From: Promethearchaeota archaeon | Lineage (GTDB): Archaea; Asgardarchaeota; Lokiarchaeia; Sigyniarchaeales; SOKP01 | DNA: 37,539 nucleotides | NCBI GenBank assembly: GCA_029838195.1 | Contig: JALGVJ010000034.1 | Coordinates: 1-37,539, forward strand | Direction of reading: 5' to 3' | Part shown: positions 9,992 to 10,180 of the stretch, piece by piece | Numbering within the stretch: position 1 is the first letter of the stretch | How the letters are laid out: every line of letters starts with the position of its first letter | The notes under the pieces: model-generated | Databases searched by the model: none | Seen by the model: the letters and a program-made list of their open reading frames with translations, nothing else | Told to the model about the DNA's origin: nothing | Made by a program: the position numbers and the translations under genes

Positions 9992-10180
9992 TTAAATGCC
10001 ATATCAAGGAGTATCACCGTAAGAGCAAAATATTCAGGGTCATCTATGCGGATTATCATGGCCCTTAACTATTCCCCCACAATTCTTACATTTGAAAGAT
10101 AAGGGTCAAGAACTTTTTAATATCTCCATTATCTGGACATGCCCGCAAGAGGGACATTTCACGTTGCTGGTTGATTTCAT
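9992..10180 (-). CDS. Small GDCCVxC-family Cys/Sec-rich protein, predicted selenoprotein with 4 Sec
   Basis: Manual translation: MKSTSNVKCPSCGHVQIMEILKSSUPLSFKCKNCGGIVKGHDNPHRUPUIFCSYGDTPUYGI-TAA. Two CxxC motifs plus the FCSYG signature; TGA at 10106-10108, 10040-10042, 10034-10036 and 10004-10006. Confidence 0.82.

Follow-up and report, generated by a model that had tools for sequence, protein, structure and literature searches.

A small gene with four in-frame TGA codons beside merA in a Lokiarchaeial archaeon: a predicted selenoprotein of the GDCCVxC family

Introduction

Can a 62-codon reading frame that is interrupted four times by TGA be a gene, and what would its product do next to a mercury(II) reductase? 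The question is raised by a short minus-strand frame in contig JALGVJ010000034.1, a stretch of 37,539 nucleotides (hereafter the window, meaning the whole stretch analysed) from assembly GCA_029838195.1 of a Promethearchaeota archaeon of the Lokiarchaeia. From the ATG at 10180 the frame reads MKSTSNVKCPSCGHVQIMEILKSS-U-PLSFKCKNCGGIVKGHDNPHR-U-P-U-IFCSYGDTP-U-YGI, where U stands for TGA, and then TAA; the TGA codons are numbers 25, 47, 49 and 59, and not a single TAA, TAG or frameshift precedes the final TAA. The original prediction, made from the letters of the window, held that this frame encodes a 62-residue protein of the small GDCCVxC family with four selenocysteine (Sec) and five cysteine residues, and that automatic gene finding had missed it. 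Coordinates and translation (Table 1) proved exact, and a standard listing of open reading frames (ORFs) indeed contains no minus-strand frame of at least 40 amino acids at this place. The source genome (G000) is a 4.5-Mb assembly of 94 contigs with 33% G+C, in which the window is contig C39. The evidence set out below leaves us nearly certain that this is a genuine selenoprotein gene with four Sec codons.

Results

Conservation of the in-frame TGA codons

A six-frame search of 40 relatives returned eight orthologues, each interrupted by four TGA codons (five in one of them) and by no other stop. When 400 genomes of the phylum were then searched with a profile, the gene was located in 28, all from the order of the source organism (21 of 134 genomes in family f1 and 7 of 14 in family f2), and all copies contained four or five TGA. 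Three of the carriers are single-contig genomes of that order (4.3, 4.4 and 6.0 Mb). Families f13, f16 and f18 harbour versions without internal stops, which read ...CPxCG...MPxDxC...CxxC...GDCCVFCSYGxxPCP. In these Asgard Cys forms each of the four columns is Cys, as it is in the bacterial all-Cys homologues. Alignment with them placed the TGA codons on the Cys of MPxDxC, on the CC pair and on the Cys of the C-terminal PC, just as the original prediction had proposed; its reading of the CC pair as UPU, with one inserted residue, was borne out as well.

The 26 Sec-form orthologues that were aligned are 31-63% identical, and columns 25, 47, 49 and 59 were TGA in 26 out of 26. Columns 9, 12, 31, 34 and 52 were TGT or TGC in the same sequences, the sole exception being a TGA at column 34 in genome G035. 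In that genome (locus L039) the fifth TGA substitutes for the second Cys of the CxxC knuckle (CGGU). The proportion of synonymous differences (pS) was near saturation, with medians of 0.65-0.67, and the ratio of nonsynonymous to synonymous proportions (pN/pS) was 0.46 for the part preceding the first TGA and 0.41 for the remainder. Because the two ratios are alike, the region beyond the first apparent stop should be under the same protein-level constraint as the region before it. Judged on this alignment, conservation of TGA at the four columns is well beyond chance. The view taken beforehand, that random decay was an unlikely source of the pattern, stood, and the check proposed with it, for conserved TGA or TGA alternating with Cys codons at these positions in other Asgard genomes, showed TGA within the order and Cys in other families.

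Two trivial origins of the TGA codons were rejected. Sequencing or assembly error is contradicted by an independent assembly (X2, a sediment metagenome from another study) that spans 9911-10085, differs by one base, at 10045, and keeps three TGAs, Sec2 and Sec3 among them; the difference amounts to R46G, and Gly is the orthologue consensus. A further run, X1, is identical over 9888-10300 and may be the source sample itself. Global reassignment of TGA is contradicted by its use as a normal stop in the source genome: among the 2295 open frames that reach 250 codons, 626 (27%) end in TGA. The four TGAs therefore call for a local reading. Under translation table 11, the adjacent merA is an open frame.

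Membership in the GDCCVxC family

With TGA read as Cys, the protein matched NCBIfam model NF041374 (GDCCVxC; cut-off 40 bits) with a score of 41.0 bits and E 1.7e-10, the match extending over model positions 1-53 of 58, and 82 of 82 aligned Sec and Cys relatives matched it at E<=0.001, the best at E 4.8e-31. The assignment to this family made in the original prediction was thus upheld. No Pfam model passed its threshold with the same translation, rubredoxin and rubrerythrin-like models gave weak matches, and neither HMA nor TRASH homology was detected in the NCBIfam and Pfam comparisons. The protein has two knuckles, CPxCG near the N-terminus and CxxC in the middle, and a conserved Cys/Sec lies between the two; the 82-sequence alignment shows C9, P10, C12, C31 and C49 without exception, and C25, C34, C52 and C59 with a conservation of 90% or more. 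All in all, these comparisons make it very probable that the protein belongs to the GDCCVxC/GOS_B family.

A word-indexed protein search with the TGA=Cys translation found nothing, and an exhaustive protein profile search returned 963 representatives at E<=0.001. Its top matches (P0002, P0004-P0007) correspond to this four-Sec form, with a W in place of each of the four Sec residues, evidently because gene calling used a code in which TGA is Trp; annotation pipelines either miss this gene or print W at its Sec positions. Among Chloroflexota, the family is present in 24 of 401 genomes, and six carry a single TGA, at MPxDxU, which is the Sec25 column. NF041374 is the 'hypothetical protein GOS_B' that a 2026 review table lists with one Sec (PMC13188914) and that was originally described from 11 Sec and 125 Cys sequences of ocean metagenomes with 'no functional evidence' (Zhang & Gladyshev 2008, PMC2398784), so that Sec-containing members were known, as the original prediction had stated.

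A Loki-type SECIS element behind the gene

Neither a selenocysteine insertion sequence (SECIS) nor the merA neighbour was part of the original prediction. The 3' untranslated region (3'-UTR) contains a hairpin that shows each lokiSECIS feature set out in PMC4989117. Its kink-turn core is formed by AUGA (9962-9959) and GA (9929-9928), its stem of nine positions by one U.U and eight Watson-Crick pairs, and its 11-nt apical loop, GCAAAUUAUAG, has early adenines and ends in AG. We built a covariance model (R1) from the three VhuD SECIS elements of the source genome only, a restriction to elements of equal length that was imposed because MAFFT misaligned SECIS of differing loop lengths. Run unfiltered on both strands of the window, R1 gave one significant match, at 9922-9968 on the minus strand (30.7 bits, E 2.2e-5), the next-best match reaching 15.9 bits (E 0.15). 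A search of the genome with R1, for which scoring covered 150 of the 1324 first-look candidates, recovered the three training elements together with one weak match (E 0.85). A pattern scan of the source genome detected 10 elements of the same format with 8-bp stems, which stand behind three vhuD, two vhuU, selD and a few further candidates.

Such a hairpin is carried by all Sec-form orthologue loci examined, mostly 38-75 nt after the fourth UGA and most commonly 44; three orthologues have an AUGA_AA core variant, which has also been described in PMC11227280. Across 21 related elements, 98.8% of the stem cells pair, compared to 34-61% when the partner is slid, and compensatory changes on both sides were found in seven of eight pairs. 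Rfam at gathering thresholds detected nothing on the window, and no SECIS family appeared in 9780-10260 at E up to 10; Rfam holds no Loki-type model, and a similar lack of matches to Loki elements has been reported for archaeal, eukaryotic and bacterial SECIS models (PMC4989117). RNAfold of the 3'-UTR alone gave z = 0.06; in a sequence this AT-rich, the hairpin does not stand out by energy. Since folding energy alone is uninformative, support for the SECIS is comparative. On this comparative basis, the predicted role of the Loki-type SECIS in assisting Sec insertion at the four UGAs is strongly supported.

Directly behind the SECIS, RNAfold predicts a second small hairpin followed by oligo-U. 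A similar hairpin was found 3' of all 10 SECIS elements of the source genome, and most of the loops contain UGC. At vhuD, vhuU, selD and a further candidate on contig C19, the 5' flank of the SECIS also pairs beyond the second hairpin, which suggests a three-way junction. Distances between UGA and SECIS gave a second pattern. At three loci (L034, L044 and L046) the first stop is a UGA that either lies within the AUGA of the SECIS core or precedes that core by 8 nt, and two vhuD genes of the source genome (C1:7652 and C75:15189) likewise end with a UGA near or inside the core; the UGAs that code for Sec are about 38 nt or more away, on the 5' side of the SECIS. A UGA within about 8 nt of the core, or inside it, evidently terminates translation, to judge from these arrangements, and would thus bound the minimal UGA-SECIS spacing.

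The same scan pointed to other loci in the source genome. On C19, a 51-residue ORF with one hydrophobic helix and the ending ...GSNS-U-PG is followed, 31 nt beyond its last sense codon, by a perfect Loki-type SECIS (29920-29954, minus; L028), AUGA-U-GAGCUCAU-GAAAAUCAUAG-AUGAGCUC-G-GA; this ORF may encode an undescribed membrane-anchored selenoprotein. Near-identical SECIS stems on C7 (32150-32184, plus; L026) and C38 (69225-69259, plus; L027) stand behind two paralogous ORFs of ~130 residues with one in-frame TGA each (...HSTSM-U-TMTFCG... and ...YTRS-U-SRTSCTIV...). On C9 (34094-34134, minus) a SECIS-like hairpin with a longer loop follows, after 14 nt, a frame of 308 codons with a single TGA near codon 15.

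Selenocysteine machinery of the source genome

The original prediction depended on the presence of a Sec machinery in the genome, and this was found (Table 1). Genes for tRNA-Sec, SelD, SepSecS and SelB were detected above their cut-offs, SelD being itself a Sec-containing protein; the assignment of PSTK, which scored under its cut-off, is accordingly probable only.

merA and other metal-related neighbours

Downstream of the selenoprotein gene, the product of merA matched TIGR02053 at 511.9 bits (cut-off 454.45), and all other families stayed below their cut-offs. It has the redox motif CVNVGC and a C-terminal CCAE (...TCCAE), and no N-terminal HMA (NmerA) domain. Both motifs and the HMA-less N-terminus are maintained in four orthologous Asgard MerA proteins. 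An extra CxC pair (FKCKCNT; MerA residues 368 and 370) is invariant across five aligned Asgard MerA sequences. A search for related loci with MerA returned solely a distant Chloroflexota enzyme. The acidic ORF upstream of the selenoprotein gene was not found beside that gene at other loci.

Metal-related genes recur around the Sec-form gene. In 17 of the 27 Sec-form loci examined, the neighbour was a mer gene, an ars gene or a P-type ATPase gene. merA follows directly downstream in seven (the source genome and six relatives), a gene for a MerB-domain protein is next in two, one of which also has MerA, a gene for an ArsM-like methyltransferase adjoins in seven, and one for a P-type ATPase with YHS/TRASH metal-binding domains in two. 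At L011/L034 (G017), L012/L035 (G013), L036 (G186) and L047 (G177) the order is arsM (NF008823, 356.7 bits), then one or two small ORFs, then the four-Sec gene. These small ORFs contain an adjacent TGA pair (...HAD-UU-ADN...), each ORF with its own SECIS, and L047 has three SECIS matches within about 1 kb. A 120-residue UU ORF beside arsM matched no NCBIfam family.

Bacterial Cys forms of the family (X) gave similar associations. The arrangement merT-merP-X occurs on three contigs, X directly precedes merC at another locus, one copy follows a cation-efflux gene, and three Chloroflexota copies adjoin genes for HMA P-type ATPases. In addition, P0140 is a MerC domain (43.1 bits over 27.6) fused to a C-terminal GDCCVxC domain. 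When tblastn was run with MerA, MerT, MerP, MerC, MerB and ArsM, none was found within 1.5 kb of 25 Chloroflexota copies, a search that short, divergent MerT or MerP may escape.

Table 1. Positions of the predicted selenoprotein gene, its signals and related features. Locations without a contig name are positions in the window; C numbers are other contigs of the source genome.
Feature	Location	Strand	Remarks
Predicted GDCCVxC-family selenoprotein gene	9992..10180	minus	ATG 10180-10178, 62 sense codons, TAA 9994-9992; 4 Sec + 5 Cys
UGA codon 25 (predicted Sec1)	10106..10108	minus	Aligns with Cys of MPxDxC; column of the bacterial single Sec
UGA codon 47 (predicted Sec2)	10040..10042	minus	First position of UxU, counterpart of the family CC pair
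UGA codon 49 (predicted Sec3)	10034..10036	minus	Second position of UxU
UGA codon 59 (predicted Sec4)	10004..10006	minus	Aligns with Cys of C-terminal PC(P); SECIS core 41 nt downstream
Predicted Loki-type (eukaryote-like) SECIS	9928..9962	minus	AUGA-U-CUCGAUAA-GCAAAUUAUAG-UUAUCGAG-U-GA; begins 29 nt past stop codon
Predicted second small hairpin	9905..9927	minus	AGAG-AUUGCAAG-CUCU; directly 3' of SECIS, then oligo-U; RNAfold
merA, predicted mercury(II) reductase	8388..9785	minus	465 aa; begins 206 nt past selenoprotein stop codon; TIGR02053
Acidic ORF	10322..10561	minus	79 residues; upstream of selenoprotein gene; no family match
tRNA-Sec	C3:36948-37040		ARAGORN; Rfam RF01852, 53.9 bits over cut-off 47
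SepSecS	C3		650 nt from tRNA-Sec; 483.6 bits over 224.85
SelB	C3:31433-32305		255.6 bits over 242.25
SelD	C86		One TGA (Sec-containing); 187.1 bits over 125
PSTK-like kinase	C42		153.6 bits, below cut-off 290.5

Predicted structure and proposed function

A confident AlphaFold model computed with the 82-sequence alignment (predicted local distance difference test 93, predicted template modelling score 0.75) contains four short strands and a single helix (residues 50-54). It matched zinc-ribbon proteins only, and weakly, and Foldseek gave no match to the PDB at E<=0.001. The model weakly suggests a zinc-ribbon-like fold.

In the mechanism that we propose, the four UGAs would be decoded as Sec through the single 3'-UTR Loki-type SECIS, using the tRNA-Sec, PSTK-like kinase, SepSecS, SelD and SelB of the source genome. 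The N-terminal CPxCG and the CxxC pair would probably form a structural zinc ribbon, and Sec25, Sec47, Sec49, Cys52 and Sec59 probably a soft-ligand site for thiophilic metal(loid)s. In the cytoplasm, the protein might capture above all Hg(II), with organomercury or As(III) as possible further targets, and the captured metal would then be either handed to MerA, MerB or ArsM or simply sequestered. At the source locus it could serve as a cytoplasmic trap or carrier alongside a MerA that has no NmerA domain, and in related genomes the partner would be MerB, an ArsM-like methyltransferase or a metal-exporting P-type ATPase. Its selenolates would enable it to compete with sulfide and thiols, which are abundant in the vents and sediments where the sequence occurs.

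Discussion

Our overall interpretation, a four-Sec selenoprotein of the GDCCVxC family with a capture site for thiophilic metals, is in our judgement likely, and its parts call for different degrees of confidence. The recurrent mer, ars and ATPase neighbours make it somewhat probable that the protein handles thiophilic metal(loid)s in general, and the chance that it handles Hg(II) specifically, in concert with MerA, falls just short of even. More tentative still is the full proposal, that Lokiarchaeial archaea encode a dedicated selenium-based mercury/arsenic trap, a protein of ~7 kDa whose four-selenolate chelating site (UxU plus two more) would strip Hg(II) or organomercury from sulfide and thiols and feed MerA, MerB or ArsM. 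If such a trap exists, it would be the first selenoprotein of archaea to serve neither energy nor redox metabolism, it would represent a genetically encoded selenium-mercury antagonism, and an Hg(II)-acceptor function could be proposed for the whole GOS_B/GDCCVxC family.

Several observations weigh against this interpretation. The NF041374 score passes its cut-off by 1 bit only, and the literal GDCCVxC motif is absent, being replaced by H-R-U-P-U-I-F-C, that is, HxUxU. The orthologues read HGUxU[VI][FL]C, in which GD is replaced and one residue is inserted within the Cys/Sec pair; the remainder of the motif (VFCSYGxxPC) is retained, and the motif-altered form is treated here as a divergent subfamily of NF041374 rather than excluded from the family. 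The PSTK match falls below its curated cut-off. Metal genes are missing from the 1.5 kb around the majority of Chloroflexota copies and around the Asgard Cys forms, whose neighbours are unrelated; with so many copies lacking metal neighbours, the link to metals is recurrent, not universal. At the source locus, the 206-nt gap between the selenoprotein gene and merA contains an oligo-U run, which weakens the case for co-transcription. Finally, Hg-Se bonds are stronger than Hg-S bonds, and transfer of mercury from four selenolates to the cysteines of MerA may therefore be unfavourable, in which event a sink would fit better than a carrier.

The alternative that survives best accepts a real four-Sec selenoprotein and gives it a different task, redox chemistry or the binding of zinc or iron, the mer and ars neighbours being coincidental or reflecting shared regulation only. 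Most known selenoproteins are redox proteins (PMC13188914), the rubredoxin and rubrerythrin-like matches, weak as they are, point the same way, and the many Chloroflexota and Asgard Cys-form loci without nearby metal genes agree with any of these roles. We nevertheless consider this alternative unlikely, because several distinct links to mercury or soft metals turn up repeatedly in archaea and bacteria alike: MerA, MerB, ArsM-like and P-type ATPase neighbours in Asgard archaea, and merT-merP-X and X-merC operons together with the MerC fusion in bacteria. A redox role is further disfavoured by the lack of a thioredoxin fold and of a CxxC/UxxC redox box at the Sec positions.

It is also conceivable that the selenoprotein is the substrate of the neighbouring MerA-like flavoenzyme, in the manner of thioredoxin and thioredoxin reductase, so that the C-terminal CC would reduce selenenyl-sulfide or diselenide bonds and not mercury. 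With its mobile C-terminal CC, the neighbour belongs to the class I pyridine-nucleotide disulfide oxidoreductases, and it shares the architecture of high-Mr thioredoxin reductase, with a weak match to TIGR01438 (171 bits). This arrangement is improbable, however, since the enzyme passes the MerA equivalog cut-off and fails those of all other families, a MerA-like enzyme adjoins the gene in no more than the seven loci mentioned, and the bacterial links point to Hg transporters rather than to reductases. The idea that the TGAs are not Sec codons at all, the frame being a decayed pseudogene, a 24-residue peptide or a case of readthrough as another amino acid, can appeal to the database entries that show W (P0002, P0004-P0007, from a TGA=Trp pipeline) but is highly implausible in view of the TGA conservation amid saturated synonymous change and the constraint maintained after the first TGA, on which a pseudogene was rejected, as well as the Cys in the same columns elsewhere, the SECIS behind every Sec-form copy examined, the Sec machinery (PSTK probable) and the use of TGA to close 27% of long ORFs.

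The four-Sec metal-capture protein favoured here can be set against what is already published, namely the family, its Sec/Cys alternation and the Loki-type SECIS elements. The occurrence of the family in archaea, its four- or five-Sec UxU form and its link to mercury and arsenic genes are absent from the selenoproteome papers PMC4989117, PMC9723677, PMC11227280 and PMC13188914, in keeping with the initial suspicion that the protein was undescribed in Asgard archaea. Seven Asgard selenoprotein families have been listed: SelD, FrhA/VhuU, HdrA, FrhD/VhuD, Prx-like, AhpF-N-like and DsbA-like (PMC4989117, PMC11227280). The GDCCVxC family is not among them, and it differs from them in carrying four predicted Sec within 35 codons, two of them one codon apart, and in a gene context of metal detoxification instead of energy and redox metabolism. 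It would thus be an eighth family of the Asgard selenoproteome, whose existing catalogue rests on homology to a set list of families already known. The SECIS itself resembles described lokiSECIS elements (Mariotti 2016, PMC4989117; Huang 2024, PMC11227280) in its AUGA, 9-position stem, 11-nt loop, GA and position close behind the stop, and the service of several UGAs by one element has parallels in the Asgard HdrA-VhuD and PrxL genes. With four Sec in 62 residues and one SECIS lying 41-143 nt downstream of them, in the lineage closest to eukaryotes, the gene would offer a compact natural test case for processive Sec insertion.

Compared to bacterial GOS_B/NF041374 proteins, the Asgard form shares CPxCG, a Cys/Sec about 12 residues further on, CxxC, the C-terminal ...CVFCSYG..PC and a Sec at the MPxDxC column, as in the bacterial selenoprotein forms. 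The known Sec forms are bacterial, with one Sec and a bacterial in-frame SECIS, whereas the Asgard form is archaeal and has four predicted Sec, or five in the case of G035; it shows UxU, which includes an inserted residue, and H-G/R in place of GD, and would rely on a single eukaryote-like SECIS in the 3'-UTR. The mer and ars associations would give GOS_B, a 'hypothetical protein' since 2008, its first testable function.

Mercury-binding components of mer systems include MerP and NmerA, which have the HMA fold and GMTCxxC, and MerT and MerC, with their cytoplasmic Cys pairs. Sulfolobus MerH, a TRASH-domain metallochaperone, is encoded before merA. Like these, the present protein is small, Cys-rich and encoded beside merA or mer transporter genes, and its sequence and context make it a plausible soft-metal acceptor for a MerA without an N-terminal metal-binding domain of its own. 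It differs from MerP, NmerA and MerH in being a predicted selenoprotein without HMA or TRASH homology, with a predicted zinc-ribbon-like fold and with selenocysteines as the putative ligands.

Replacement of a metal-ligand Cys by Sec in mercury and arsenic proteins has bacterial precedents in the MerT-like mercuric transport protein (C/SxxU), NF041115 (UxxU), MbdU (NF045648, CU) and Sec-containing ArsM variants (PMC13188914). ArsM-associated Sec proteins also adjoin the four-Sec gene in four Asgard genomes. The bacterial examples nevertheless belong to different families and contain one to three Sec, in contrast to the four of the Asgard protein described here.

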